Shown in pieces: positions 42,316 to 64,000 of a stretch of DNA of 64,000 nt (positions within the stretch are counted from its first letter, which is position 1; the number at the start of each line of letters is the position of its first letter). Below the pieces are notes generated by a model that was given only the letters and a program-made list of their open reading frames with translations, was not told the origin of the DNA and ran no database searches. A program made the translations under genes and the position numbers. This stretch comes from Candidatus Woesearchaeota archaeon (GTDB lineage Archaea > Nanobdellota > Nanobdellia > Woesearchaeales > GW2011-AR4): contig JACPBQ010000004.1 of NCBI GenBank assembly GCA_016180235.1, positions 371,352-435,351 of the forward strand, given 5' to 3'.

Positions 42316-43086
42316 TCATTTAATATCGAACTTGTGTATTTTTTTGATGCCTGATTTCTGGAGCCTGTACTGAATCAGGGATTTCATTATATTGAGCCCG
42401 TAGACAATTGAATTCCGAAATGATATATTGTGGGACTCAGGGCCGTAGTGGGTAGGTATCGGAATTTCCGCTATCCTCTTTTTTTTGATGTGAAGCTGGA
42501 TAAGTATGTCAGTGTCAAAGCTGTAGCCGTCTGTGCACCTTTCGATTGCTATGTCTTTCAAGGCGTCAATCCTGTATGCCCTGAAGCCTGTATGGTATTC
42601 TGAAAGCCTCAGCCCCAGGACAGCATTTTCAACAGCTGTCAGGAGCCTATTGCCAAAGTATTTCCAGATCGGCATGCCTCCTGCAAGCGGATTTCCAAGG
42701 AATCTTGAGCCCATCGACGCATCAGCCTTCCCTTCGATTATTGGCTTTATCAGCTGGGGTATATACTCCGGGGCATACTGGACATCGCCGTGCAGCATCA
42801 CTACCACATCATAGCCTTTTTTTATAGCATAATTATAGCCCTTTTTTTGGTTGCCGCCATAGCCAAGATTCTCCTTATTCCTGTAGATGTTCAGTTTTTT
42901 TACCTTGTTCCGGTATTTGTAGCCAAGTCCGGCGTAATAAGTATTGTCATCACTGCAATCATCAAAAACATATATTTCCTCTGCTCTTTTCTTTATTTCA
43001 TCAGGTATCCTTTCTATAGCTGATATCAGGGTTCGGACAGCCTGGTATGCTATAATAAAAATTGCAATCTTCATTTTTTTGCCCAT
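42316..43086 (-). CDS. GT2 glycosyltransferase (Dol-P sugar synthase-like)
   Basis: FIIAYQA, DDCSDD, GYGGNQK, LHGDVQY, MGSRF, SEYHTGFRAY and FDTDILIQ. Confidence 0.9.
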   Translation of the reverse strand: MGKKMKIAIFIIAYQAVRTLISAIERIPDEIKKRAEEIYVFDDCSDDNTYYAGLGYKYRNKVKKLNIYRNKENLGYGGNQKKGYNYAIKKGYDVVVMLHGDVQYAPEYIPQLIKPIIEGKADASMGSRFLGNPLAGGMPIWKYFGNRLLTAVENAVLGLRLSEYHTGFRAYRIDALKDIAIERCTDGYSFDTDILIQLHIKKKRIAEIPIPTHYGPESHNISFRNSIVYGLNIMKSLIQYRLQKSGIKKIHKFDIK

Positions 43087-43170
43087 TTTCTGCCCCAAGT
43101 CCCGTGTAAAGGTTAATTATTTAAATATATTATTTTTACCAGTCCTATTTGAAGAGTTAAAGGTGACTGC

Positions 43171-44615: not shown

Positions 44616-46106
44616 TTAAGGGATATAATATAATGCCGCGCTTTTTTGGTCTTTGCCGGCTTCTTTAATTATCACCCATTTAGCCGGGGGATTGAAAACT
44701 TCTTCCTGGAAGGAAAATTCCATGAAAGGATGGGCTTCCTTGACTGCCTGGATAATGTTTTTGTCCACCAGGACATACGCATCTCTTATCTTGCTTAAAT
44801 CATGCATTGGCTTTCCTGCATCAGTTTGCACATCAAATTCTTTAATCTCAATATCTCCTTTGTATCCGGACAAATACCCAAGGACAGCTTTGGACCTCTT
44901 ATCTGTATATAACGGCTTGTCCAAATCGCTGACAGCAGGATAAAGGCTGGCAAGGTTTTGGGTTACCTGCTTTGTATCCTGCTCCAGGTAAATGAAGCCA
45001 ATTGAAGCTGCAAAAAGCATCAAAATAATTGACGGCATAAGGGCTTTTCTTATCACTTCCTCGTTGCTCAGCAAAAAATAAGACAACAGCATTATTCCCG
45101 GAAAAATTACAGGAAACAGGTATCTGGGGACTCCTGCGAAGGGCAAATAACTGGAAAGGCTCGTGCTGCCAAAGCTTATGTAAAGCAAAAGTACGCTAAA
45201 CCAAATTATTAATGGGTAGGTTTCTTTTTTTCTTAACAATATCGAGTAAACAAGTGCTATGAATATAAAAGGAAAAAACAGGCCAAATTGGCTGCTGGTG
45301 AACAATAAATACGGATAATGCACAAGAGAAGATGGAAATGAGCCCCTGCCAAAGAAACCCGAGCTTTCCACAACATCTTCGTAATTCTGACTCAACGAAT
45401 GGTACCTGTAAAACGGGTCACCTGTATTAAGCATAAATAATATAGACTCAAAACTAAAAACCACAATAAAGCCGGCTAATATATACAAATAATTCAGCTT
45501 TATTTTCCTATAAAATATGGCATAAGCGCCAAAGAAAAGCACTATTAAAACTGCAGTCTCCCTAAATGTGTATGCTATGCCGATAAAAAGGCCAGAAAGG
45601 ATGTAGCTCAGATTCATTTTTAATTTTTTCTGACACCTCTCACCAAGCAAAAAGAGGAATACGCCAAGGCCGATGAAAAATGCTGAGGGCAAGTCGCTCA
45701 CGAGCCTAGTGGCAAAAATCACGTCCAAGGGAAAAAACGAGAGGAGAAAAGCAGACAACAAACCGACCTTTTCACCAAACAGAAATCTTCCAAAATAAAA
45801 TATCAATATCATGCCTGCAATTGAGAACAGTAGTACAGGAAATACCGAGGAAAAATCATTAACTCCGAACAAGCCGTACATGAAGCTGACTGAATATAAA
45901 AAGAACAGCCTCATTCCCTGGTGGGTGCCGGGAAATGCATAATCATCTTGCGACAGGTCATATGCATACTTCGTGTATCCCAGGTCATCAGATGCTCCTA
46001 TGCCGCTGAAAAAATACAGCCTAAGCGCTATTCCAAAAAGTATTATTAATGCAAGCCATATTAAGGATTTCCCTCTGATTTTCCTTCCCGGTTCTGCAGC
46101 TGCCAT
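44616..46106 (-). CDS. ArnT/PMT-family (GT39/83-like) GT-C membrane glycosyltransferase
   Basis: First loop ASDDLGY, LFGVNDFS, LLSAFLLSFFPLDV and RYLFP; many TM segments. Confidence 0.8.
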   Translation of the reverse strand: MAAAEPGRKIRGKSLIWLALIILFGIALRLYFFSGIGASDDLGYTKYAYDLSQDDYAFPGTHQGMRLFFLYSVSFMYGLFGVNDFSSVFPVLLFSIAGMILIFYFGRFLFGEKVGLLSAFLLSFFPLDVIFATRLVSDLPSAFFIGLGVFLFLLGERCQKKLKMNLSYILSGLFIGIAYTFRETAVLIVLFFGAYAIFYRKIKLNYLYILAGFIVVFSFESILFMLNTGDPFYRYHSLSQNYEDVVESSGFFGRGSFPSSLVHYPYLLFTSSQFGLFFPFIFIALVYSILLRKKETYPLIIWFSVLLLYISFGSTSLSSYLPFAGVPRYLFPVIFPGIMLLSYFLLSNEEVIRKALMPSIILMLFAASIGFIYLEQDTKQVTQNLASLYPAVSDLDKPLYTDKRSKAVLGYLSGYKGDIEIKEFDVQTDAGKPMHDLSKIRDAYVLVDKNIIQAVKEAHPFMEFSFQEEVFNPPAKWVIIKEAGKDQKSAALYYIP

Positions 46107-48380: not shown

Positions 48381-49265
48381 ATGGAAAAAAGCAGGCAGGC
48401 AAGAAGCTTGAAAGAAAGGATAAAAAAGTATGTCCCATTCCTGGCGCAAATCCAAATTTATAAGCTTGTCAAAAAAACAAGGTTTTTGAGGCATAAAATA
48501 TCCAGCAAGATTCTGGGTAAGGAAGACATAAAAAAAGCCTTTAGGCAGGCCGGCCTGAAAAAAAATGACATCGTTGTTGTGCATTCTTCTCTTGGCAGGA
48601 TCGGGCATGTAAAGAACGGGGCTGATGCTGTTATAGATGCTTTCCTGGAGATAATAGGCAAAAATGGGCTGCTTATCATGCCGGCTTTTTCCGCATTGAA
48701 CTATGATAAAAAAAGAAAAATGCATGTTTTTGATGTGAAAAAGACCCCAACTTATACCGGTGCAATCCCTGAGACTTTCAGAAAACGGGAAAATGTAAAA
48801 AGAAGCATATCCCCTACGCATTCCTACTGCGCTTTTGGCAGGAGAGCATCTGAATTTGTGAGAAACCATGAGAACTGCGACAACCCTTTTGCCATGAACG
48901 GCCCTTTTGGGAAGATTTACCGCTGGAATGCAAAAATTTTCCTCATCGGGGTTGATCAGCTCGCAAATACCCCTTTGCATATTGTAGAGGACAAGACGGA
49001 GTTCCCTGTCAAAGTCTTTACTGACAAATTCAAAGTTCTAGTCATAGATGATGGAAAAGAGAAAATAGTAAAGGCAAGAAAGCACCTGGACAGCCTGAGA
49101 AGGCATCGTGACCCCAACATACTGGAAAAATACTGCATGAGCTATGGGGTGATGAAAATACACAGGCTCGGAAGCACAGAACTTAGGATCCTAAATGCAA
49201 AGGATTTTGTCCATATGATGGAGGAGCTTGTCAGGAAAAACATAACAATATACCACGCAAAATGA
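48381..49265 (+). CDS. Aminoglycoside N3-acetyltransferase-family protein (AAC(3)/YokD/FrbF-like)
   Basis: VVHSSL, LIMPAFS, TGAIPETFR, RS..PTHS, IFLIGV and NT.LH.VE. Confidence 0.85.
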   Translation: MEKSRQARSLKERIKKYVPFLAQIQIYKLVKKTRFLRHKISSKILGKEDIKKAFRQAGLKKNDIVVVHSSLGRIGHVKNGADAVIDAFLEIIGKNGLLIMPAFSALNYDKKRKMHVFDVKKTPTYTGAIPETFRKRENVKRSISPTHSYCAFGRRASEFVRNHENCDNPFAMNGPFGKIYRWNAKIFLIGVDQLANTPLHIVEDKTEFPVKVFTDKFKVLVIDDGKEKIVKARKHLDSLRRHRDPNILEKYCMSYGVMKIHRLGSTELRILNAKDFVHMMEELVRKNITIYHAK

Positions 49266-51513: not shown

Positions 51514-52314
51514 TCAATAGTCATAAAATCCTTTTCCTGTTTTCCTGCCAAGCCTGTTTTGCCTTATCAAATCTGACAATATTGGAGACGGCTTGTATTT
51601 GTAGTCATTCAGCTGCTTAAAGAGGCTGTTAAGGATATCAAATGCAACATCAATCCCGACAAGATCCAGGATTGTTATAGGGCCAAGGGGATGGTTTGCA
51701 GTCAGCATCATGCTCCTGTCGACATCTTCTTTTGTTGCAATGCCTTTATAGACCGTGTTTGCAGCTTCATTTAGCATCGCGAACATTATCCTGTTGAACA
51801 GAAAACCGGGCTCATCCTTTACTAAAACCGGCTCTTTGCCTATTTGCCTGGCAAGGCTCAGAATGGCGCTTTTTGTTTCCCTGCTTGTTTCCGGCAGCAT
51901 CGGGATTTCAACAACTTTCATAAGCGTTGCAGGATTTGAAAGATGGAATCCTATTATATTCTTTTTGTGCTTGCAATTCGCTGCAATCACGTGCAACGGG
52001 ATAGTTGAAGAGTTTGAGGCAATGATTGCATGATCTGACGCTACCCTGTCAAGATTTTCAAATACTTCCTGCTTTATAGCCCTGTCTTCCTTAACTGATT
52101 CAATGAGCAGATCGCATTCCGACAAACTGGCATAGCTGCCTTCTATCTTTAATCTGCCAGCCATTTTCTTATCATAGAACAGCTTGCGGCAGTGGTCTTT
52201 CGCATCTTTCTTCCTTGAAACCATCATTACATAAAAGCCCCTGCTCAGGAAAAGCTCCGCTGTCTGGCAGCCCATTGTACCGCATCCTACTATGCCAATT
52301 TTCCTGATTCCCAT
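51514..52314 (-). CDS. 3-hydroxyacyl(butyryl)-CoA dehydrogenase
   Basis: GIVGCGTMG, ESVKED, ASNSST, GFH..NP, PGF.FNR, HPLGP and GRKTGKGFYDY; start 31 nt from a TATA. Confidence 0.9.
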   Translation of the reverse strand: MGIRKIGIVGCGTMGCQTAELFLSRGFYVMMVSRKKDAKDHCRKLFYDKKMAGRLKIEGSYASLSECDLLIESVKEDRAIKQEVFENLDRVASDHAIIASNSSTIPLHVIAANCKHKKNIIGFHLSNPATLMKVVEIPMLPETSRETKSAILSLARQIGKEPVLVKDEPGFLFNRIMFAMLNEAANTVYKGIATKEDVDRSMMLTANHPLGPITILDLVGIDVAFDILNSLFKQLNDYKYKPSPILSDLIRQNRLGRKTGKGFYDY

Positions 52315-52511
52315 ACTTGCATGGTTTTTAACCAGCTTTAAAAAGCTTTTCACAGAGTAAATATCATAAATTCCTGACGATATACCATGAATGAAAACAT
52401 GGATATGCAAATAGTTAACTTTAAATAGTAACCAAAAAATTCAAATAAAAATATTAATGCCATAAAATTAATTACAAACAGCAAAAATAAATAAAACTGG
52501 GTTTAATATAA

Positions 52512-53474: not shown

Positions 53475-54197
53475 GTGAAAGTTTTAATAACCGGGGGTAA
53501 AGGCGCACTGGGAAGGGCCCTTTGCAGCAAATTTGAAGGAGCTTATTGCCCGAGCCATGGAGAGATGGACATAACGGACCCAAAAGCTGTGGATAAAATA
53601 ATATCCAAATACAATCCGGACGTTTTGATTCATACAGCAGCTGTTGTCGGAGTAAGGGAATGCGAAGACGACAAGGAGAAAGCCTGGAATACCAATGTGG
53701 AAGGAACGCAGAATATAATAAATTCATTAAAAAAATTGAATAACAACTGCTATCTTATTTATATATCGACAGCATGCGTTTTTGCCGGGGAAAAGGAAAA
53801 ATACTACACGGAGAAAGATGCACCTTCACCTAAAAATTACTATTCTTTCACTAAAGCCTGCGGAGAGATTGCAGCCAGGCAATACCAGAATGCGTGCATA
53901 ATAAGGACAAATTTCGCGCCCAAGGGGCAGTGGAAATATCCCAAGGCATTTACGGACAGGTTCGGGACATACTTATTCCCGGAAAATATAGCACAGGCAA
54001 TCTCCGAAGTCATAGGGAAAAAGGAGAAAGGGATAATCCACATTGCCGGGGACAAGAGGATGAGCATGCATGAGCTGGCATTGCTGGCAGGCTCAAAAAA
54101 TACGGGAAAAATGACATTGGATGAATACAAAGGGCCTCCAGTGACAGTGGATATGAGCTTATCAACGAAAAGATGGAAAAAATACAAGATAAACTGA
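53475..54197 (+). CDS. RmlD-like NAD(P)-dependent sugar reductase
   Basis: TGGKGALG, DIT, IHTAA, YISTACVF and YSFTK; the GTG start is 30 nt after tttaaata at 53445. Confidence 0.8.
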   Translation: MKVLITGGKGALGRALCSKFEGAYCPSHGEMDITDPKAVDKIISKYNPDVLIHTAAVVGVRECEDDKEKAWNTNVEGTQNIINSLKKLNNNCYLIYISTACVFAGEKEKYYTEKDAPSPKNYYSFTKACGEIAARQYQNACIIRTNFAPKGQWKYPKAFTDRFGTYLFPENIAQAISEVIGKKEKGIIHIAGDKRMSMHELALLAGSKNTGKMTLDEYKGPPVTVDMSLSTKRWKKYKIN

Positions 54198-54199
54198 CA

Positions 54200-54748
54200 A
54201 TGGAATTAAAAAAACTGAACCTGGGCTGCGGAAAAGATATAAAAAAAGGATACATCAATCTCGACCAGTCAAAACTGGAAGGTGTTGATGTAGCGTATGA
54301 CCTTAACAAATTCCCATGGCCATTCCCAAAGAACTATTTTGACGAGATATATGCGAGGGATGCCATAGAGCATTTAAAAGACATATTCAAAGTCATGAGG
54401 GAAATAAACAGGATCTCAAAACCCGGAGCAACTGTAAAGCTAATTGTCCCTTACTGGCACTCTTCCGCAGCTTTTTACCCCAATCATTACTATTTCTTCA
54501 ATGTTGACAGCCTGAAGCTGTTCACAGAAAAAGGCAGAAGCTATGACAACCATTACGGCTTCAAGCTTGAAAAAATAAAGCTGATACCTTCCAGGATAGG
54601 CTGGCTCATACCGCCAATACCATTGCCGAAGTCCATTTTTAAGAATGTCATAGACTTAAGGCATCTTTTCAGCTATATTTTCGGGGAAATAATAGTAAAA
54701 ATCGAATTCACCCTGAAGGCAGTTAAAGATAAGTATGCTAGACAATAA
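54200..54748 (+). CDS. Class I SAM-dependent methyltransferase-like protein
   Basis: KLNLGCG, DLNKFPWPF..NYFDEI....IEH and ISKPGA...IVP. Confidence 0.8.
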   Translation: MELKKLNLGCGKDIKKGYINLDQSKLEGVDVAYDLNKFPWPFPKNYFDEIYARDAIEHLKDIFKVMREINRISKPGATVKLIVPYWHSSAAFYPNHYYFFNVDSLKLFTEKGRSYDNHYGFKLEKIKLIPSRIGWLIPPIPLPKSIFKNVIDLRHLFSYIFGEIIVKIEFTLKAVKDKYARQ

Positions 54749-55715
54749 AGGGCTTTTTTAAGAGGTATTTTTCACTGAAGATTTTTAGTATGTAACTATC
54801 ATCAGCTTTTCTCAGCCTTTGGACTTCCCTCCTCTTCTTCAATACCAGCCTAAAATTAAGAATTATCCAGAAAATTGCCTTTAGCCTGGCAAACGCATTC
54901 CCGAACTTTAATTTGGCTAAATCCCTCAGAATTGAAGCTGCTCTCATCAAAGCAACGTAAGGCAGCATGGGCAAAATTGTTTTTATCTCAAATATCCTGA
55001 AAAAAGTCATCAAAAGATTTCTTTCCAGCAAAAAAACTGATTTTGATTGGGCCTCCCATTTTTTTGTGGTGAAGGCGTGCATGTGGTAATTTATAGCTCC
55101 ATTAACCATTACAACTTTCATCCCAAGCATGCGTATCCTCAACCCAAGATCCAGATCCTCGGCATAAATAAAATAATCAGGATCAAATAAATAGCCAAAT
55201 TTGCCTATGACAGATTTTCTTATAAATCCCCCTCCCATATATGGTATTTCTGTTATTTTTTTGTTTTTATCCCTGGCATAATGGCCGCAATACATTGACC
55301 TTGAGACCCATGTGCCTCCTGAAATCACCTTGGGGTCAAAATAATTAACAGAAACATAAGTTGTCATTGCAATGCTGCTGTCTTTTTCCAAAACATCTAT
55401 GAACTTTTTAAAGCAGCCTTTATGCAGTATAAGGTCGTTATTCGCGAAATAGACATATTTCCCATTGCAATACCGCAATGCAGAATTTATTCCGACATAC
55501 CCAAGATTTTTTTTATTAGCGACTATTTTTACATTCGGATATGCTTTCTTGACGAAATCCACGCTTCCGTCGCTTGAGGCATTATCAACAAGAATGCTGT
55601 TTATCTTATCCTTGGGGTAGTCAATCTTTGAAAGCGAAGCAAGGAAATTATCCAAAACTTCCTTTCCATTGTAATTAACGACTATTACGTCAACAAAAGG
55701 GAATTTTCCGCTCAT
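54738..55715 (-). CDS. GT2 glycosyltransferase (WbbL/rhamnosyltransferase-like)
   Basis: VIVVNYNG, VDNASSDGS, NLGY, NND, YAEDLDLGLR and YH. Confidence 0.9.
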   Translation of the reverse strand: MSGKFPFVDVIVVNYNGKEVLDNFLASLSKIDYPKDKINSILVDNASSDGSVDFVKKAYPNVKIVANKKNLGYVGINSALRYCNGKYVYFANNDLILHKGCFKKFIDVLEKDSSIAMTTYVSVNYFDPKVISGGTWVSRSMYCGHYARDKNKKITEIPYMGGGFIRKSVIGKFGYLFDPDYFIYAEDLDLGLRIRMLGMKVVMVNGAINYHMHAFTTKKWEAQSKSVFLLERNLLMTFFRIFEIKTILPMLPYVALMRAASILRDLAKLKFGNAFARLKAIFWIILNFRLVLKKRREVQRLRKADDSYILKIFSEKYLLKKPFIV

Positions 55716-55723
55716 TATATCTC

Positions 55724-56677
55724 TTAATCTTTCTTTAATATATATTTTTTGTAGAGGTCTTTCATATGCATAAGCCAGCTATGGTTCGGCATTGCATAAA
55801 ACCCGCTTACTTCCATGCCATCCTCTATCGAGCTTATCAAAACAGAATTCAGCAGCACTTTGCAGTCATTTCCCACATCAACATGGTCTTTTATTGTACA
55901 GCCCAATCCTACCCATACCCTTTTTCCCAACTTGCAGCTTCCTCCAAGGCAGGTCATCCCGCAAATCCTGGTATCTTCGCCTATAGCGCAATTATGGCTT
56001 ATGTAGACAAGGTTGTCTATCTTAGCATTGTCATCTATCCTTGTCCACGCAAAGCTTGCCCTGTCAATAACAGCATTGCTCCCAATCTCAACATTATTGC
56101 CAATTCTAACCCCGCCAATGTTTATAAGCCTTGCAGCCTTGTTTTCCCTGTCCATAACAGTGCTGAAGCCTTCTCCGCCTATAACAACGCCGGAATCTAT
56201 AGTGCATTTGTTTCCAATAGAAACCTTGTCATAAATGCTCACATTCGAGCTTATAATCGTGCTGTCGCCAACCGAAACATGGCTTCCAATGACAGTATTT
56301 GGCAGTATCCTGACATTATTTCCTATCCTGACATTATTTCCAAACCTCACTGTGCTGTCGATACTGCAGCCTTTCCCAACAACCGGCTTTTCATTACCTG
56401 TATTGAAGGGCCTGAAATCCTTATGAAGGGCATTATGATATTCAATAAAAGCCAAATGAGGGTCGTCTACGATTATGTACTTGTTTCCCCTTATACCCTT
56501 GATTTTTTCATAGATATCCTTTGAGGTTAAGACAATGACACCCTGGCCATCCTTCAAGAATTTCTTATATTCAATATACTTTATGAAGCTTACTTTATTT
56601 TTTTCAATGTTCTCAAGACTACAAGTGCCGTCATTATCCGGTATGCTGTATTTTTTTTGGACAGTTTTTGGATCCAT
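55724..56677 (-). CDS. LpxD-like N-acyltransferase (left-handed beta-helix)
   Basis: IVDDPH, long hexapeptide run, VIGGEGF, GGVRIGNNVEIG.N.VIDR and KIDNLVYISHN (LpxD KIDNLVQIAHN, His retained). Confidence 0.82.
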   Translation of the reverse strand: MDPKTVQKKYSIPDNDGTCSLENIEKNKVSFIKYIEYKKFLKDGQGVIVLTSKDIYEKIKGIRGNKYIIVDDPHLAFIEYHNALHKDFRPFNTGNEKPVVGKGCSIDSTVRFGNNVRIGNNVRILPNTVIGSHVSVGDSTIISSNVSIYDKVSIGNKCTIDSGVVIGGEGFSTVMDRENKAARLINIGGVRIGNNVEIGSNAVIDRASFAWTRIDDNAKIDNLVYISHNCAIGEDTRICGMTCLGGSCKLGKRVWVGLGCTIKDHVDVGNDCKVLLNSVLISSIEDGMEVSGFYAMPNHSWLMHMKDLYKKYILKKD

Positions 56678-56686
56678 GTCAGAACT

Positions 56687-57304
56687 TTATTCTACCCACC
56701 TAAGTATCTCAAATGCTTCAGCATATTCTTCATTTGCCGAATGGCCGCGTATTTTTGCGACGCTTTTTAGCATCTCCGGGCTCCTCATTGCCCTTACCTC
56801 TGATTTATAGCATGAGTATGCCTTTAACTTGCGATTCATGTCAACCGGGACAAAATAATTCAGCTTGAGGGGAAAAGGGTTCCAAATGGACTGATGGAAT
56901 GTCTCAAATATCAACACTTTTTTCACAAAGAAATTTGTGTCATGCGGCCTTAAAGCAACCAGCGCAGCATTATAAACAGCCCTGTGGTCCTGGTTGTAAT
57001 CTGGGCAGGGTATGAAAACGCGCTCCGGCCTGAGCTTGTTTATGAGCTTTTCAAAAATAGGGATCAATTCCTGCGCTTTGTAGGAATTTACCTTGCTTTC
57101 CCTGTTATAATCCCATTTTATGCCAAGGAATGATGCTGCCGCTTCCAGCTCCTTTAATCTTTGGTTTACAGGCAGCTGGCCTGCGGCCATATTGCTCTCG
57201 TCAACCCCGCAATAATACACAAATGAATCCTCATTTAATACGCTGACACAACCCAAAGCTTCATCATCAGCGTGCGGCGAAAAAACCAAATTTTTGCATG
57301 TCAT
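56687..57304 (-). CDS. PIG-L/LmbE-family de-N-acetylase
   Basis: SPHADDEALG (HxDD), QDH, and K..A...Y.SE ... AEAF. Confidence 0.88.
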   Translation of the reverse strand: MTCKNLVFSPHADDEALGCVSVLNEDSFVYYCGVDESNMAAGQLPVNQRLKELEAAASFLGIKWDYNRESKVNSYKAQELIPIFEKLINKLRPERVFIPCPDYNQDHRAVYNAALVALRPHDTNFFVKKVLIFETFHQSIWNPFPLKLNYFVPVDMNRKLKAYSCYKSEVRAMRSPEMLKSVAKIRGHSANEEYAEAFEILRWVE

Positions 57305-57405: not shown

Positions 57406-57741
57406 ATGATAACGGGAATTGGTGTTGATATAGAATCTGTTAACCGGTTTAAAGGCCTGTGCAAAGACAAGCATTTTCTCAGCCTCGTATTCACAAAGCG
57501 CGAGAGGGACTATTGCCAAAGAATGAAAGAGCCCCATATAAGCTATGCCGGCAAATTTTGCGCCAAGGAAGCTGTAATGAAAGCAAATTCAAAAAAACTG
57601 GATATCAAAGACATTGAAATCATCAATGCTTCAAATGATAAGCCAGAAGCCTACATCAAAAGAAAAAAGATGAAAAGCGTACACTGCAGCATCTCGCACA
57701 CTAAAACCCATGTGATTGCCTTTGCAGTGATTGAAAAATAA
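57406..57741 (+). CDS. acpS: Holo-ACP synthase (4'-phosphopantetheinyl transferase)
   Basis: GIGVDIE...RF, FT.RE..YC, AGKFCAKEA and SISH....AFA. Confidence 0.92.
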   Translation: MITGIGVDIESVNRFKGLCKDKHFLSLVFTKRERDYCQRMKEPHISYAGKFCAKEAVMKANSKKLDIKDIEIINASNDKPEAYIKRKKMKSVHCSISHTKTHVIAFAVIEK

Positions 57742-57746
57742 GCTAA

Positions 57747-58895
57747 TCATTCTTCCAGCTTTTTCTTCATCTCGTTCAAAAAATCAGCGACATATTTGCC
57801 GTTGCACACCCTATGATCGAAGGCTACAGTGAGATTGAGCTTTTTGCCGTAAGCAGCCTTTCCATCCTCATGCACTGCAGAATCATATTCTGCACCTATG
57901 CCAAGGATTGCAGACTGCCATGCATTAACAATAGGCTCAAACTGGAGTATCCCATGAGACGAAAAATCGCTGATTGTAAAAGTCCCATCCTGCAGATCCC
58001 CCACATGGATCTCTTTTTTGATCAACTGCAGCAGCAACTCCTTTATTTTTGCTGAAAATTTATCGAGCTGCAACCTGTCCGCATTATGTATTACCGGGAC
58101 AAAAAGATCTGTACCGATATTCATGGCATAGCCTATATTCACATCCTTGTACCTGCAGATAAAGCCATTTTCATAATAAGAATTCAATAAGGGATATTTT
58201 AACAAGGCCCTGGCTGCATTATAGGATATGTATTCTCCAAGGCTCAGCATTATCCTTTTTTCTTTTGCATATTCCTCGACTTTTTGCAATAGCTTCCTTG
58301 TTGAAACTGATACTGTCAGGGACGACTGCAGGTATTCTTTGCTGTGGCTGAGGTACTCAATCTCGGTTTTTTTGATGTTATTTACTGCTATCCTCTCGAC
58401 ATTTCCACGCCGGGACTTTTGAACATTCTGAATATATTCCTTTACATCATCTTCCTTGATAATTTTACCGCTGCCTGCAAATGCATCTGACAAGTCAATG
58501 CTATGCTCCCTGGCCAGCTTCTTTGCCGAAGGGGTCGCTTTGATTTCATAATTAAACTCATTTTGCCCTCTTGCGGCAGCCTGCTCTGACGGCATTGCTG
58601 TTTTTGAGGTGCCTGCTTTTGAGCTATGTTTTCTATGCAGCTGCGGAATCTTGTCGCCTTTCTGCCCAATATAACCGACTTCGTCAAGAACATTGGCATC
58701 TTCGCCCTCCCTGCAATTCAGCGCCAAGATTTTCCCATCCCCATCCGCTTCAATCACAAAGGTGGCTTTATATGTCTCAATTTCAAATATAGGATCGCCT
58801 TTCTTTACATTGTCACCTTCCTTAAAATTCAATTTACCTATCTTAACCTCTTCAATATTTGCACCCATCTTCGGTATGAATATTACTGTTCCCAT
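57747..58895 (-). CDS. Dihydrolipoamide acyltransferase (E2)-like protein: lipoyl, PSBD and catalytic domains
   Basis: EIETYKA lipoyl-Lys, ATPSAKKLARE...I.EDDV (PSBD), GTFTIS and AFDHRVCNG. Confidence 0.88.
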   Translation of the reverse strand: MGTVIFIPKMGANIEEVKIGKLNFKEGDNVKKGDPIFEIETYKATFVIEADGDGKILALNCREGEDANVLDEVGYIGQKGDKIPQLHRKHSSKAGTSKTAMPSEQAAARGQNEFNYEIKATPSAKKLAREHSIDLSDAFAGSGKIIKEDDVKEYIQNVQKSRRGNVERIAVNNIKKTEIEYLSHSKEYLQSSLTVSVSTRKLLQKVEEYAKEKRIMLSLGEYISYNAARALLKYPLLNSYYENGFICRYKDVNIGYAMNIGTDLFVPVIHNADRLQLDKFSAKIKELLLQLIKKEIHVGDLQDGTFTISDFSSHGILQFEPIVNAWQSAILGIGAEYDSAVHEDGKAAYGKKLNLTVAFDHRVCNGKYVADFLNEMKKKLEE

Positions 58896-58904
58896 TTTTA
58901 TCGC

Positions 58905-59879
58905 TCATTCATTGATTATGCTCCATGCTTCTTTCTCTATCCTTTCCGCAGTCGGAAGCACTTTCCTCTCAAGATCAGGAGCAGATGGAATGGGGACATC
59001 CATGGTGCATACCCTTCTTATAGCCGAGTCCAGCGAGTAAAAGCACTCCTCATTTATCCTTGCAATAATCTCTGCACTTATACCACATTCTGAATACCCT
59101 TCTTCCACGACAAGGACTTTCCCAATCCGCTTAACAGAAGACTTGATTGTCTGCATGTCAAGGGGCTTAATGGTCCGCAGGTCTATAATCTCAATTGAAA
59201 TCCCTTTTTTTTCGAAAGCTTCCGCAACATCCAGGCAGTCCTTAACGCTCTTGCTGTATGTTATAATCAGGAGATCCTTCCCTTGCCTTATGACTTCTGC
59301 CTTTCCCAGCGGGATAAACTCCGGATATCCTTTTTCCTCCTCTTCAATAGCATAAAGGTTCTTATTTTCAATAAAAATCACGGGATTTTTATCCTCTATC
59401 GACGCTTTCAGCAGCCCCTTCACATCAGAATTCCTGTAAGGCGCGACAATTTTTATGCCCGGGATGTGCATAAGCGGGGCGATTATGCTCTTTGAATGTG
59501 TTGCCCCATAGCCCCTTCCGGCGCCGGCAGCAACACGGATAACCAACGGAACATTTACTTCTCCGTGCGTAAGATAACAAAAAATGCTCGCATGGTTAAA
59601 AAGCTGGTCGTAGGCCAATGTCATGAAGTCCATGAACATGATTTCTACAATCGGCTTGAGGCCATTAATTGCTGCCCCAATGCCTAGGCCGACTATTGCC
59701 TGCTCAGACATTGGCGTGTCAATGATCCTTTTTGGGCCATACTTCTCCAACAGGCCCCTGGTCGCGCCAAAACAGCCACCATATTTACCTATATCCTCGC
59801 CAATTATAAAGACCGATGGGTCTTTCTCCAAAGACTCATCAAGAGCTTCTTTTATCAGCTGGGCGTAGTTCTTTTTCAT
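58905..59879 (-). CDS. 2-oxoacid dehydrogenase E1 beta subunit-like
   Basis: GEDIG.YGG.FG, DTPMSE, EIMFMDF, HSKS and EIIDLRTIKPLD. Confidence 0.93.
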   Translation of the reverse strand: MKKNYAQLIKEALDESLEKDPSVFIIGEDIGKYGGCFGATRGLLEKYGPKRIIDTPMSEQAIVGLGIGAAINGLKPIVEIMFMDFMTLAYDQLFNHASIFCYLTHGEVNVPLVIRVAAGAGRGYGATHSKSIIAPLMHIPGIKIVAPYRNSDVKGLLKASIEDKNPVIFIENKNLYAIEEEEKGYPEFIPLGKAEVIRQGKDLLIITYSKSVKDCLDVAEAFEKKGISIEIIDLRTIKPLDMQTIKSSVKRIGKVLVVEEGYSECGISAEIIARINEECFYSLDSAIRRVCTMDVPIPSAPDLERKVLPTAERIEKEAWSIINE

Positions 59880-59880
59880 C

Positions 59881-60825
59881 TTAATCCTTGTATATATTTG
59901 CGCTTACCTCAAAATCTTCACGTTCAGAATTGCGGCTTATAATCTCTTCTGAGAGTGAATCCAATTTTTCCCTGATTTTTCCCTTAATCTTCTGGATTCC
60001 TTCCCCGGTTATTTTTTTTGACACCAACAGCTCTTTTTCGAGGCATGCAAGCGCGTCCTTTTCCATCCAAAATTTTTCCTCTTCTTTATCCCTATACAGA
60101 TTCTGGTCATTCTTTGAGTGGCCGCAGTGCCTGTAGGTCTTCACCTCAATAAAAAACGGCTGTGGTTTTTTGCGTATTTGGGATATAAATTCCTTCGCAA
60201 CAGAATCAAGCTTCCTAAAATCATTCTCATCGACCAGCTCACATTGAATATTGTAGGCCTTTACCTTGCCAATAATCTCGCTGCTATGGCCGACACTTGT
60301 GGGAGTAGACATCGCGTAATGGTTATTTTCACAAACAAAAAGAACAGGCAGATCCATAACCGAGGCAAGATTCAGTGACTCAGAGACGTAGCCTTCATTG
60401 AAACCCCCATCACCAAGGAATGCCACAACAACATTATTGCTGTTCTTGTACTTATTTGCAAACGCAAGGCCGTTTGCAATAGGTATCATTCCCCCGCTAA
60501 CCCCGTTTGCAATAAAGTTCTGCTTTATGGAGCTGACATGCTGGGAGCCCCCCATGCCATGATTATAGCCGGCAGATTTGCCCATAAGTTCAGCCAAAAA
60601 TTTTTTTATATCCAGCCTCTTTGAGATTGCATGTCCATGGCCCCTATGTGTGCTAGTTACAAAATCCTCATCTGTCAAATACTGGGAAATTATTGCAGGA
60701 ATAAACTCCTGGCCTATGCAGAAATGGGCTGTTCCCCCAACCAAGCCGCGCTTAAACAGTTCGCTCAGCTTGTTTTCAAATTCCCTGATGAAGCAGATTT
60801 CCTCGTATATTTTTAAATCGTCCAT
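59881..60825 (-). CDS. 2-oxoacid dehydrogenase E1 alpha subunit-like (TPP)
   Basis: HFCIGQE, STHRGHGH, the GDG...ENN TPP motif and TYRHCGHS. Confidence 0.93.
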   Translation of the reverse strand: MDDLKIYEEICFIREFENKLSELFKRGLVGGTAHFCIGQEFIPAIISQYLTDEDFVTSTHRGHGHAISKRLDIKKFLAELMGKSAGYNHGMGGSQHVSSIKQNFIANGVSGGMIPIANGLAFANKYKNSNNVVVAFLGDGGFNEGYVSESLNLASVMDLPVLFVCENNHYAMSTPTSVGHSSEIIGKVKAYNIQCELVDENDFRKLDSVAKEFISQIRKKPQPFFIEVKTYRHCGHSKNDQNLYRDKEEEKFWMEKDALACLEKELLVSKKITGEGIQKIKGKIREKLDSLSEEIISRNSEREDFEVSANIYKD

Positions 60826-60845
60826 GCCTTAGCAAACGAAAAAAC

Positions 60846-60854
60846 ATTTAAATA
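60846..60854. promoter_or_regulatory. Shared palindromic TATA between E1alpha (-) and ACP (+)
   Basis: atttaaat(a) lies in a 51-bp gap, about 27-30 nt from both start codons. Confidence 0.55.
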
Positions 60855-60876
60855 GGTTTCCTTTTTCTTCAAAGGC

Positions 60877-61107
60877 ATGCAGACGAAGAAACCAAGCAAG
60901 GACGAGCTGATTGTATTTTTTTCAGAATTCTGGAAAATAGACCAGGATGAAGTCACGGATAAACTTGAGCTAAACAGCAAATCACTTCCCGGGTTTGATT
61001 CTCTACGGCTGTTCCAGTTCTTTGCAGCAGTTGAATTCAAATTCAAAGTAAAAATCAAGAAACTGAACAGCATCCGCACTTTCGGCGAACTCTTCAATAA
61101 TATCTGA
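60877..61107 (+). CDS. Acyl carrier protein
   Basis: 76 aa with FDSL (phosphopantetheine Ser) followed by ...VE.KF.V.I....IRTFGEL. Confidence 0.82.
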   Translation: MQTKKPSKDELIVFFSEFWKIDQDEVTDKLELNSKSLPGFDSLRLFQFFAAVEFKFKVKIKKLNSIRTFGELFNNI

Positions 61108-61149: not shown

Positions 61150-62415
61150 TCATCTTTGGCCTATGCCCCTGTATGCAATACCAATCTTTTTTATCTTTTC
61201 CTTGTTAAGGCAATTCCTTCCGTCAATTACTATCTTGATATTGTTCTCCTTTAATTTTCCGATATCTATATTCCTAAACATAGAGTGGTCCGCAGCCAGA
61301 ATTATATACTCCACTTTTCCGAGCAGCGTGCTTAATTCCTTTACATCGCTTTTTTCCCTGATGTAGGGGTCAAAAACCAGAACTTCTGCCTGTTTCTCTT
61401 TTAGCACTTCTATAACTTTAAGCGCAGGGCTTTCCCTCATGTCATCAACATCTGCCTTGTATGCGAGCCCTAAAACACCGACCTTTGCCCCTTTTATGCC
61501 TTTTTTCAGCTTTTTCAGCTCTTCTTCCAGCAATTGCACCGTGTAGTGAGGCATATTATTGTTTATTTCCCTTGCCAAGCTCAAAAACCTGTGGTTAAAT
61601 CCTATCTGCTTTGCCTTTTCTATCAGGTAATAAGGGTCAACCGGGATGCAGTGGCCACCTACTCCAACGCCGGGGTAATGTGCCATGAACGCAAACGGCT
61701 TTGTAGAAGCCCCTTTGATGATCTCAAGAATATCAATCCCTGCCTTGTCGAAGCTCATGGCCATCTCATTTATGAATGCAATGTTCACATCCCTAAAAGT
61801 ATTTTCCATGATTTTTGCGGCTTCCGCAGCCTTTGCGCTGCTCAGTTTCGTTATATCCGCATCAATAATTTTCTTATAGAATTCATAGGCTTTTTCCGTC
61901 GATTTTTTGTCGATTCCCGCGACTACCCTTGGAAGGTTTTTTACTGTCCACTTTTTATTTCCAGGGACTATCCTTTCAGGGCAGTGGGCAAGATAAAAGA
62001 CAACATCGGACTTTTTCAGTATTGGCAGCACTATTTCTTCCGTTGTTCCCGGGTAAATGGTCGATTCTATAACCACCAGGGTATTTTCTTTAAGATGCCC
62101 GGATATCGATATGCATGCATCCTTTAACGGCTTTAAATCAGGAAGATGCCTGTCATCCACGGGAGTAGGGACGCATACAATAACAACCGAAGAATTTTTT
62201 ATTGCCTGAAAATTATCAGCAGCCTTTATTTTTCCCTTTGACTTTCTCACTTCCTCTATCAAATCGGGATCGTTGATGGGGCTAATTCCTTTGTTAATCT
62301 GATCTACCTTATTTTTGTTTATGTCTATGCCATAAACATCCATGCCTTTTTCAGCGCATAAGCATGCCAACGGCAGCCCTACATAACCCAGCCCAACTAT
62401 AGTTACTGATGCCAT
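61150..62415 (-). CDS. wecC: UDP-N-acetylhexosamine 6-dehydrogenase (WecC/WbpA family)
   Basis: GLGYVGLP, VIESTIYPGTT, CPERI.PG, KIMEN.FRDVNIA, GVGGHCIPVDP and YKADVDD.RESP. Confidence 0.93.
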   Translation of the reverse strand: MASVTIVGLGYVGLPLACLCAEKGMDVYGIDINKNKVDQINKGISPINDPDLIEEVRKSKGKIKAADNFQAIKNSSVVIVCVPTPVDDRHLPDLKPLKDACISISGHLKENTLVVIESTIYPGTTEEIVLPILKKSDVVFYLAHCPERIVPGNKKWTVKNLPRVVAGIDKKSTEKAYEFYKKIIDADITKLSSAKAAEAAKIMENTFRDVNIAFINEMAMSFDKAGIDILEIIKGASTKPFAFMAHYPGVGVGGHCIPVDPYYLIEKAKQIGFNHRFLSLAREINNNMPHYTVQLLEEELKKLKKGIKGAKVGVLGLAYKADVDDMRESPALKVIEVLKEKQAEVLVFDPYIREKSDVKELSTLLGKVEYIILAADHSMFRNIDIGKLKENNIKIVIDGRNCLNKEKIKKIGIAYRGIGQR

Positions 62416-63605: not shown

Positions 63606-64000
63606 TTATTCTATCCTATCCGGATTGATTATTACCTTTAAAGAATCTTTTGGCTCTGCGACAAGCTTAAAGCCTTTGCCTATATCACCCAAATCCAGCT
63701 TATGCGTTATCAATCCCTTAATATTCATCTTTTTTGCCTGTATGAGCTTTAATGACTCTTCCAGGTCATTCGGAGCAGCGCCGTAAGATGATGTAATTGT
63801 TATCTCATTTCTCCAGAAGTCAAGGCTCGGTACCTCTATATTTTTGTTTGGAATTGCAAAAAATAAAATTGTGCCTTTTTTGTCTATGCAGTTAAAAGCC
63901 TGCCCGGCTGCCTGCAAAGCGCCAGTGCATACTATGACCATGTCTGCCTTAATATCCAAATCATGCTTTTTTGCATCAATCACTTTATCAGCTCCGAATT
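63606..64000 (-). CDS. Zinc-binding (MDR) alcohol dehydrogenase, C-terminal part (5' end beyond the window)
   Basis: The frame stays open to the window edge: FGADKVIDA...ADMVIVCTG...GTILFFA...LITHKL...KVII. Confidence 0.8.
   Translation of the reverse strand, partial: FGADKVIDAKKHDLDIKADMVIVCTGALQAAGQAFNCIDKKGTILFFAIPNKNIEVPSLDFWRNEITITSSYGAAPNDLEESLKLIQAKKMNIKGLITHKLDLGDIGKGFKLVAEPKDSLKVIINPDRIE

Follow-up and report, generated by a model that had tools for sequence, protein, structure and literature searches.

Within a 64,000-nucleotide stretch of a Candidatus Woesearchaeota genome (the window; contig JACPBQ010000004.1), a gene for a PIG-L/LmbE-family de-N-acetylase directly precedes one for an LpxD-like acyltransferase. 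The pair probably de-N-acetylates an amino sugar of the surface glycan of this DPANN-type archaeon and then re-acylates it from an acyl-acyl carrier protein (acyl-ACP). Both genes belong to a co-directional trio on the minus strand: the deacetylase (56687-57304, 205 amino acids), the LpxD-like protein (55724-56677, 317 amino acids) and a soluble family 2 glycosyltransferase (GT2; 54738-55715, 325 amino acids), separated by gaps of 9 bp and 8 bp, respectively. A sequence-only reading of the window had described just this arrangement, with an HxDD deacetylase and an LpxD-type gene that keeps its His, and the open reading frames (ORFs) and family matches bear it out. It had also proposed deacetylation followed by N-acylation of a non-lipid-A sugar. 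Comparative context supports this idea, because PIG-L and LpxD-like genes lie side by side in six further places, because the host is an archaeon without detected lpxA, lpxB or lpxK, and because the same PIG-L subfamily elsewhere directly precedes a sugar-type formyltransferase. To that reading we add the archaeal host, a private set of ACP, AcpS and pyruvate dehydrogenase (PDH)-like E1/E2 genes, and an isolated LpxC-fold protein.

The deacetylase and its LpxD-like partner

The deacetylase scores 41.0 bits against PF02585 (cut-off 28.2), and its metal motif (H11-A-D13-D14 together with H107) is invariant across 41 homologues, H107 aligning with a ligand His of diacetylchitobiose deacetylase (Dac). 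HxDD plus a further His is the metal-binding motif of LmbE-like deacetylases; the 93 residues between ligands 2 and 3 fall slightly below the 97-148 range given for them (PMC4101496). The top Foldseek matches to an AlphaFold2 (AF2) model of the protein (pLDDT 92.3) were all LmbE-like deacetylases (template-modelling (TM) score 0.71-0.80), including Dac, BC1534, TT1542 and BshB, and the teicoplanin and A40926 deacetylases Orf2* and Dbv21 matched as well (TM 0.69-0.76). The oxyanion-stabilising His of the family (MshB His144, BshB His110) is absent, and an invariant Asn104 stands there instead (NQDH, not HPDH). Judged on its sequence, the protein is a predicted LmbE-like deacetylase by domain, fold and HxDD-plus-His motif, with the oxyanion His missing.

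Its partner passes the LpxD subfamily model NF002060 (248.2 bits, cut-off 207), comes in slightly below the cut-off of the LpxD equivalog model TIGR01853 (235.6 against 242.5 bits) and scores 22.9 bits against the N-domain model PF04613, below the cut-off of 30.8. Residues 17-302 align to solved LpxDs in the PDB (E 3e-33), and the architecture of N-terminal uridine-binding domain, left-handed beta-helix and C-terminal helix is present. The best 25 Foldseek matches to its monomer model are all LpxD, yet at TM scores of only 0.3-0.54 owing to the moderate quality of that model. Measured against E. coli LpxD (sequence from NC_000913), H239, G257, D232, F41, Y47 and H276 are kept as H228, G246, D221, F31, Y37 and H265. 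LpxD acts on a nucleotide-amino-sugar, with H239 as the base, G257 forming the oxyanion site, F41 and Y47 stacking on uracil and D232 binding the beta-hydroxyl (PMC6286764). H228, G246, F31 and Y37 do not vary within the clade, and H265 is replaced by Asn in just two members (P0014 and P0015). Elsewhere the protein departs from E. coli LpxD: Q236, counted among the acceptor and ACP contacts, is Y225, the hydrocarbon-ruler residue Met290 is V279, and one beta-helix segment is shorter.

A search of 5.8 billion proteins returned 14 full-length proteins 45-76% identical to the LpxD-like protein (alignment A2) and a short fragment (P0013), whereas identity falls to at most 39% for ordinary bacterial LpxDs. 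In a maximum-likelihood tree of 54 sequences (a quick search only, midpoint-rooted), the clade and one sister sequence sit on a long branch away from the LpxDs (SH-aLRT 96-99). A screen of 300 further genomes sampled from the order, one of them a 96%-complete member of the genus, gave no match to the LpxD-like protein at E<=1e-20. Among GTDB species representatives, the clade occurs on a single 3.4 kb contig labelled Gammaproteobacteria, which is possibly mis-binned.

The window lies on a 437 kb contig of a 1.04 Mb assembly (9 contigs, 81% complete). The assembly has no 16S rRNA gene, and TATA-binding protein (TBP) served for taxonomy instead. Both TBP repeats are encoded on the window's own contig (~104 bits each) and the family is otherwise matched only by four archaeal control genomes, so the host is archaeal. 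A search of the whole assembly for lpx genes, the check suggested by the sequence-only reading, revealed no lipid A pathway: lpxB and lpxK had no match, and the lpxA model matched only the LpxD-like gene and another hexapeptide protein. The earlier statement that lpx partners are missing from the window thus extends to lpxA, lpxB and lpxK throughout the assembly, and needs amending for lpxC. A 310-amino-acid LpxC-fold protein is encoded on contig C6 (32375-33307, plus strand; L019:8376-9308). It matches PF03331 with 75.9 bits over positions 1-184 of 268, reaches 51.7 bits against a TIGR00325 cut-off of 187, and its gene is isolated, with that of a large FG-GAP/CARDB surface protein on one side and DNA-repair genes on the other. 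Given an archaeal host, the absence of matches to lpxA, lpxB and lpxK, and an LpxC-fold protein both divergent and isolated, a role in lipid A synthesis is very unlikely. The LpxD-like protein resembles LpxD but falls outside the lipid A enzymes by its equivalog score, substrate contacts, pathway context and host.

Conserved pairing and a variable acyl-loading slot

Besides the window, the PIG-L and LpxD-like genes are adjacent on five contigs and at locus L108, and the two proteins diverge at similar rates (61-64% and 57-63% identity, respectively). Relatives at 57-76% identity keep together the PIG-L, LpxD-like and GT2 genes, a methyltransferase, a short RmlD-like short-chain dehydrogenase/reductase (SDR), a small phosphopantetheine (PP)-binding ORF and a 4'-phosphopantetheinyl transferase (PPTase). 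At L108 (7632-8387), where the PIG-L locus is 62% identical, only a shortened part of the LpxD-like gene directly downstream is matched, split over two reading frames, and LuxE is fragmentary; that LpxD-like gene looks frameshifted, and the cassette there degraded or mis-assembled.

The genes next to the carrier protein differ between relatives, with three different ACP-loading modules occupying one slot. FkbH, a MaoC dehydratase and an SDR form the module in P0001, P0005 and L021; an adenylating enzyme, an iron-dependent alcohol dehydrogenase (Fe-ADH), LuxE and LuxC take its place in P0003, P0014 and L108; and in the window the slot is held by E2-E1b-E1a-ACP, where the 76%-identical relative has FkbH-ACP-MaoC-SDR. 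This relative and the window locus are flanked by the same purine-phosphorylase (PNP) and phosphoribosyltransferase (PRT) genes, and in both AcpS is divergent from PIG-L. P0009 has a 3-hydroxyacyl-CoA dehydrogenase homologue. A differently placed LpxD-like gene in a Methanomassiliicoccales metagenome-assembled genome (L030:796-9573) is accompanied by DegT, a GFO/IDH/MocA oxidoreductase, GT4, an adenylase, LuxE and LuxC, a set that suggests ACP-dependent N-acylation of a 3-amino sugar.

The window's module includes an AcpS-type PPTase of 111 amino acids (57406-57741, plus strand; PF01648, 59.7 bits; TIGR00556, 69.6 bits), of which a 55%-identical orthologue lies beside a related E2 in the Pacearchaeota-type contig L102. 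On the minus strand follow the E2 dihydrolipoyl acyltransferase (57747-58895; PF00198, 167 bits, with PF00364 and PF02817), the E1 beta subunit with its pyrimidine-binding and transketolase C domains (58905-59879; PF02779/PF02780; NF006667, 353.9 bits) and the E1 alpha subunit, which binds thiamine diphosphate (ThDP) (59881-60825; PF00676, 200 bits; TIGR03182, 270.6 bits, below cut-off). E2 combines a lipoyl domain with an ETYKA lipoyl-Lys motif, an E3-binding domain and a catalytic domain with a DHRV motif; the solved E2s nearest to it are ordinary PDH E2s (E 1e-29). Divergent from E1 alpha lies the 76-amino-acid ACP (60877-61107, plus strand; NF002150, 21 bits, E 2.5e-4), with Ser42 as predicted phosphopantetheine site. 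An ORF 45-56% identical to it, with invariant Ser42, lies divergently upstream of E1a in L102 and L103. A profile of the ACP matched exclusively ACPs in the PDB (best E 2.2e-4), and hhalign related it to the relatives' PP-binding ORFs with 89% probability. Another ORF considered for the carrier (60813-61097, minus strand, 94 amino acids) was rejected, having a low-complexity translation and no family match.

Genes for the E3 lipoamide dehydrogenase (566 bits) and for a ligase of LplA type lie at other places in the genome. The sole E3 lies ~140 kb from E1/E2 (C9:224000-241000; L018), among a FabA-like dehydratase, a thiolase-like protein, an enoyl-CoA hydratase, a FabG-like SDR and DUF362, which look like an ACP-independent fatty-acid-type set. 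Members of the E1/E2 clade (E1 62-67%, E2 46-48% identity) also occur in a Pacearchaeota locus, where AcpS, MBOAT and a DltD-like gene accompany them, and in a JGI locus, where a small hexapeptide acyltransferase does so, each with a divergent ACP ORF. Because the clade recurs beside these other acyltransferases, E1/E2 plus ACP looks like a portable acyl-ACP supply. In the Pacearchaeota-type contig (L102:662-10433), E1a/E1b, an E3-like gene, LplA, a radical-SAM gene, E2, a 76-amino-acid ACP and AcpS adjoin MBOAT and DUF1574 (DltD-like) genes; the set has the look of a Dlt-type system that acylates the surface by way of a carrier protein, with a PDH-like complex as its supplier.

When the ACP was modelled with residues 80-317 of the LpxD-like trimer, the predicted complex lent weak support to their interaction. 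The model reached an ipSAE of 0.48 against 0.00 for the best control, with at least 91% of contacts shared between runs and a partner pLDDT of at least 84. Among solved complexes the ipSAE mark is passed by 58 of 80, among mismatched pairs by 2 of 110, and passes at <=0.60 comprise just 7 of the 80 solved complexes plus both passing mismatches. The pass may merely mirror likeness to the solved LpxD-ACP complexes 4IHF-H.

Among the other neighbours, an NDP-N-acetylhexosamine 6-dehydrogenase-like protein of the UDP-ManNAc/GlcNAc dehydrogenase family (61150-62415, minus strand; TIGR03026, 430.7 bits) is a possible supplier of the acceptor sugar; an orthologue, 64% identical, lies at the margin of the L009 locus. 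The presence of this gene here and in L009 suggests that the acceptor may be an N-acetylhexosamine (HexNAc)-uronic acid. Conserved companions are an S-adenosylmethionine-dependent methyltransferase (54173-54748, plus strand; PF08241) and the short RmlD-like SDR of 240 amino acids (53475-54197, plus strand; PF04321, 127.6 bits), both with 70%-identical orthologues in L008 and L009. The GT2 of the trio (PF00535, 73.8 bits) has no transmembrane-like segment and recurs at 58-60% identity in the same locus of L008, L009 and L010. A 3-hydroxyacyl-CoA dehydrogenase-family protein (3HCDH; 51514-52410, minus strand; PF02737/PF00725), 44% identical to the homologue that in L010 separates the LpxD-like gene from that for the PPTase, is a possible acyl-tailoring enzyme that allows for a 3-hydroxybutanoyl group or an oxidised variant. 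Adjoining a UDP-GlcNAc 2-epimerase in the glycan island, an aminoglycoside 3-N-acetyltransferase-family protein (48381-49265, plus strand; PF02522, 178 bits) may be a sugar N-acetyltransferase and not a resistance determinant. No tRNA genes were found in the window.

The last 99 bases of the window's contig (C9) are identical to the first 99 of contig C2, so that the contigs abut just past window position 64000 and the glycan island continues ~10 kb beyond PIG-L. On C2 it comprises PNP, PRT, PMT_2, GT4, GT2, GT9 and a DUF6541 membrane protein. The PMT_2 there, ~10 kb from PIG-L, is the orthologue (50% identity) of the relatives' GT-C; the PMT_2 within the window (44616-46106) was rejected for that role.

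Beyond these loci, the PIG-L protein has at least 285 homologues at E<=1e-5, the best 120 listed being 46-89% identical. Within the order, this subfamily occurs in 2 of 301 sampled genomes, this one included, and AcpS in 43 of 301 (39 of 297 without the unpublished genomes G121, G245, G210 and G206). In an NCBI single assembly (L109:4647-5959), a PIG-L gene of 57% identity overlaps the start of a formyltransferase gene, with flippase, PMT_2 and GT2 genes nearby; that pair would exchange N-acetyl for N-formyl. A formyltransferase also lies within the cluster of a Patescibacteria contig (48% identity). Two JGI contigs (L111 and L112, 55% identity; L111:5280-8459) instead carry a tight GT2-PIG-L-PMT_2 operon without an acylating enzyme, which would amount to an Arn-like route to a free-amine sugar. 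These alternative partners of PIG-L (formyltransferase, LpxD-like protein or none) fit a generic scheme in which an acetyl is removed and another acyl optionally added.

Proposed mechanism and competing explanations

In the scheme that we favour, PIG-L would strip the N-acetyl group from a HexNAc-type sugar, most likely a UDP-sugar or alternatively a dolichyl-phosphate-linked one. The LpxD-like trimer, with His228 as general base, would acylate the freed amine with acyl-ACP as its donor. AcpS would convert the 76-amino-acid ACP to its holo form, and the ThDP-dependent E1a/E1b with lipoyl-E2 would load a short acyl onto it in the manner of QncN/L/M and SclQ1-4. GT2, followed by the GT-C (PMT_2) across the contig junction, would bring the re-acylated sugar into the surface glycan. 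We infer the order of the reactions, the acceptor, the ACP as donor and the transfer from E2 to ACP. The uracil-stacking F31 and Y37, unchanged throughout the clade, favour a UDP-sugar acceptor; a lipid-linked acceptor stays in play because GT2-PIG-L-GT-C operons exist. By analogy with the Qnc and Scl systems, glycolyl or another short (hydroxy)acyl is our best guess for the group transferred, though a doubtful one; acetyl would make the cycle futile. From the relatives' modules one might expect lactyl/glyceryl or dihydroxybutanoyl groups, judging by FkbH and tetronate chemistry.

Several observations weigh against this scheme. In the LpxD-like protein, the sugar/pyrophosphate contacts N44 and K46 of E. 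coli are replaced by Y34 and E36, R314, which contacts the phosphopantetheine phosphate, is replaced by L302, and the C-terminal helix that binds ACP does not reach the length of its E. coli counterpart. The AF2 model of the protein is moderate (pLDDT 76.8, below 50 at residues 277-296), too uncertain to trace an acyl groove or judge a hydrocarbon ruler. The carrier protein, for its part, is strongly divergent: no Pfam family matches it, and PF00550 misses it even at E<=1. Since the assembly encodes no second E2, E1/E2 could be the cell's general pyruvate dehydrogenase, with ACP and AcpS then serving lipoylation. The GT2-PIG-L-GT-C operons would suit a deacetylase whose substrate is a lipid-linked sugar and not a UDP-sugar. 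Finally, neither the acceptor sugar nor the acyl group is readable from the sequence; both are our inference.

Some of these points are shared by an alternative in which the same deacetylase and acyltransferase draw on an acyl-CoA, such as 3-hydroxybutyryl-CoA made via the island's 3HCDH, while E1/E2 is an ordinary pyruvate dehydrogenase and ACP/AcpS provides octanoyl-ACP for lipoyl supply. The single E2 and the lost R314 contact would suit such a donor, as would the retained beta-hydroxyl-binding D221, the E3, LplA and radical-SAM genes between E1b and E2 next to ACP and AcpS in the Pacearchaeota relative, and the 9.7 kb L010 contig, which shows no ACP and has a 3HCDH homologue flanked directly by the LpxD-like gene and that for the PPTase. 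Yet every long relative locus with an LpxD-like gene has a PPTase, and most also pair an ACP with an obvious loader (FkbH, or adenylase/LuxE). Moreover, E1/E2 plus ACP fills the FkbH-plus-ACP slot of the 76%-identical relative, no fatty-acid synthase able to make octanoyl-ACP was seen, and all characterised LpxD family members are ACP-dependent (PMC6286764). With these points set against it, we regard an acyl-CoA donor as rather improbable.

An Arn-like route, which we consider unlikely, would instead place the chemistry on a lipid carrier: GT2 makes dolichyl-phosphate-HexNAc, PIG-L deacetylates it, the LpxD-like protein re-acylates the lipid-linked amine and the GT-C (PMT_2) transfers the sugar outside the cell. 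PIG-L deacetylating GlcNAc-PI offers a parallel. The tight operons of L111 and L112 point this way, as do PMT_2 genes adjoining PIG-L in L008, L009 and L010, the orthologous PMT_2 just over the C9/C2 junction and a small GT2 orthologue at window positions 42316-43098; in addition, characterised LmbE enzymes all act on glycosides, not nucleotide sugars (PMC4101496). However, the invariant F31 and Y37 argue for a UDP-linked acceptor of the acyltransferase, and neither PIG-L, the LpxD-like protein nor the adjoining GT2 has membrane segments. Likewise, characterised formyltransferases of the family found in place of the LpxD-like protein use NDP-sugars (nucleotide-amino-sugars), which counts against a lipid-linked substrate. 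A genuine LpxD, encoded on a mis-binned bacterial fragment or serving a cryptic lipid A-like pathway, is extremely improbable. The NF002060 score, the LpxD label that automatic pipelines give such proteins and the LpxC-fold protein in the genome speak for it; TBP on the same contig, the lpxA, lpxB and lpxK genes not found, the low score and isolation of the LpxC-fold protein, the separate long-branched clade and the setting in a glycan island speak against it. On host, lack of matches to lpxA, lpxB and lpxK, clade and context, we rejected a lipid A reading and retain re-acylation of a surface-glycan sugar from acyl-ACP as the probable one.

Wider meaning and comparison with known systems

In a more speculative reading, which we hold somewhat less likely than not, the loci represent a plug-and-play cassette of DPANN archaea and some other small-genome organisms. 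A core of LmbE, LpxD-like protein and a private ACP and PPTase would be joined there to three or more unrelated acyl-ACP factories, so that close relatives would carry different short hydroxyacyls on the same surface sugar. The factories would be PDH-like E1/E2, FkbH/dehydratase/reductase and adenylase/Fe-ADH/LuxCE, giving, for example, glycolyl, lactyl/glyceryl and dihydroxybutanoyl. If so, an LpxD-family enzyme would operate outside lipid A, its scaffold recruited for glycan tailoring with donors from interchangeable ACP-loading modules, and archaea would have an ACP pathway unrelated to fatty acid synthesis. One of those modules would be of the lipoyl-dependent, PDH-like kind otherwise known from Streptomyces natural products. 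Archaeal ACP and PPTase genes could then serve glycan decoration. The exchange of modules among close relatives suggests diversifying selection on the N-acyl group. The cassette would offer a way, open to testing, to unusual N-acyl amino sugars at the surface of episymbiotic archaea, whose surface chemistry probably controls host contact and virus recognition. For annotation, pipelines will label the archaeal protein 'UDP-3-O-(3-hydroxymyristoyl)glucosamine N-acyltransferase', wrongly implying lipid A.

The open-access literature yielded nothing usable on WbeO/RfbO, on LpxD in archaea or DPANN, or on 3-hydroxybutanoyl N-acyltransferases. This combination in archaea, the LpxD scaffold as its transferase and the swapping of ACP-loading modules appear undescribed there. 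Already known are LmbE-fold deacetylation followed by acylation (teicoplanin) and ACP-borne short hydroxyacyls on glycan amines (Vibrio cholerae O1).

The closest comparison is LpxD acting with LpxC. Shared with it are the three-part architecture, the catalytic His, the oxyanion Gly, the uracil-stacking Phe and Tyr, the beta-hydroxyl-binding Asp, the proposed order of deacetylation and N-acylation and, probably, an acyl-ACP donor. The archaeal system differs in its host and in a deacetylase of LmbE rather than LpxC fold; its acyltransferase has changed equivalents of N44, K46, Q236, M290 and R314, scores below the equivalog cut-off and belongs to a separate clade. Its donor would come from modules other than fatty-acid synthase and is hence probably short.

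Routes in which GT2, an N-deacylase and a GT-C of PMT_2/ArnT type put an amino sugar on the envelope include ArnC/ArnD/ArnT for L-Ara4N and mycobacterial PpgS/Rv3779 for GalN. The PIG-L subfamily described here is likewise regularly linked to GT2 and PMT_2 genes. Those routes end in a free amine, whereas here a re-acylating enzyme is added, and their deacylases, where known, come from other families.

Teicoplanin and A40926 biosynthesis appears to use the same pair in principle, so that the logic of the two steps is not unique to the archaeal locus. The second enzyme there is reportedly an acyl-CoA-dependent acyltransferase unrelated to LpxD. As in the window, an LmbE/PIG-L-fold deacetylase (Orf2*, Dbv21) frees a GlcNAc amine for another acyl (PMC4101496). 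Their acceptor, in contrast, is a glycopeptide-bound GlcNAc and their acyl a long fatty chain.

In V. cholerae O1, perosamine of the O-antigen is N-acylated with a short hydroxy acid activated on the carrier protein RfbK (PMC12208996, PMC3441752). This tetronate pathway (RfbK/WbeK ACP, RfbL/WbeL ligase, RfbM and RfbN) resembles the archaeal one in N-acylating an amino sugar through a dedicated ACP, and the relatives L008, L011, L108 and L030 carry this same set of ACP, adenylase, Fe-ADH, LuxE and LuxC genes beside the LpxD-like gene. It differs in that its amine comes from an aminotransferase and not from deacetylation, and in that the window uses E1/E2, not adenylase/LuxCE.

The window's own loading module is paralleled in Streptomyces, where QncN/L/M and SclQ1-4 with SclP likewise combine ThDP-dependent E1a and E1b, lipoyl-E2, an ACP of ~76 amino acids and a PPTase and make glycolicacyl-S-ACP (PMC6335953). 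In systems of this type, ketose phosphates yield the glycolyl unit that passes to the ACP; the archaeal E1/E2 could start from pyruvate, hydroxypyruvate or a ketose phosphate. By gene composition, the archaeal module may similarly pass its acyl-ACP to an acyl-consuming enzyme; the Streptomyces systems feed non-ribosomal peptide assembly, whereas here the product would be a glycan.

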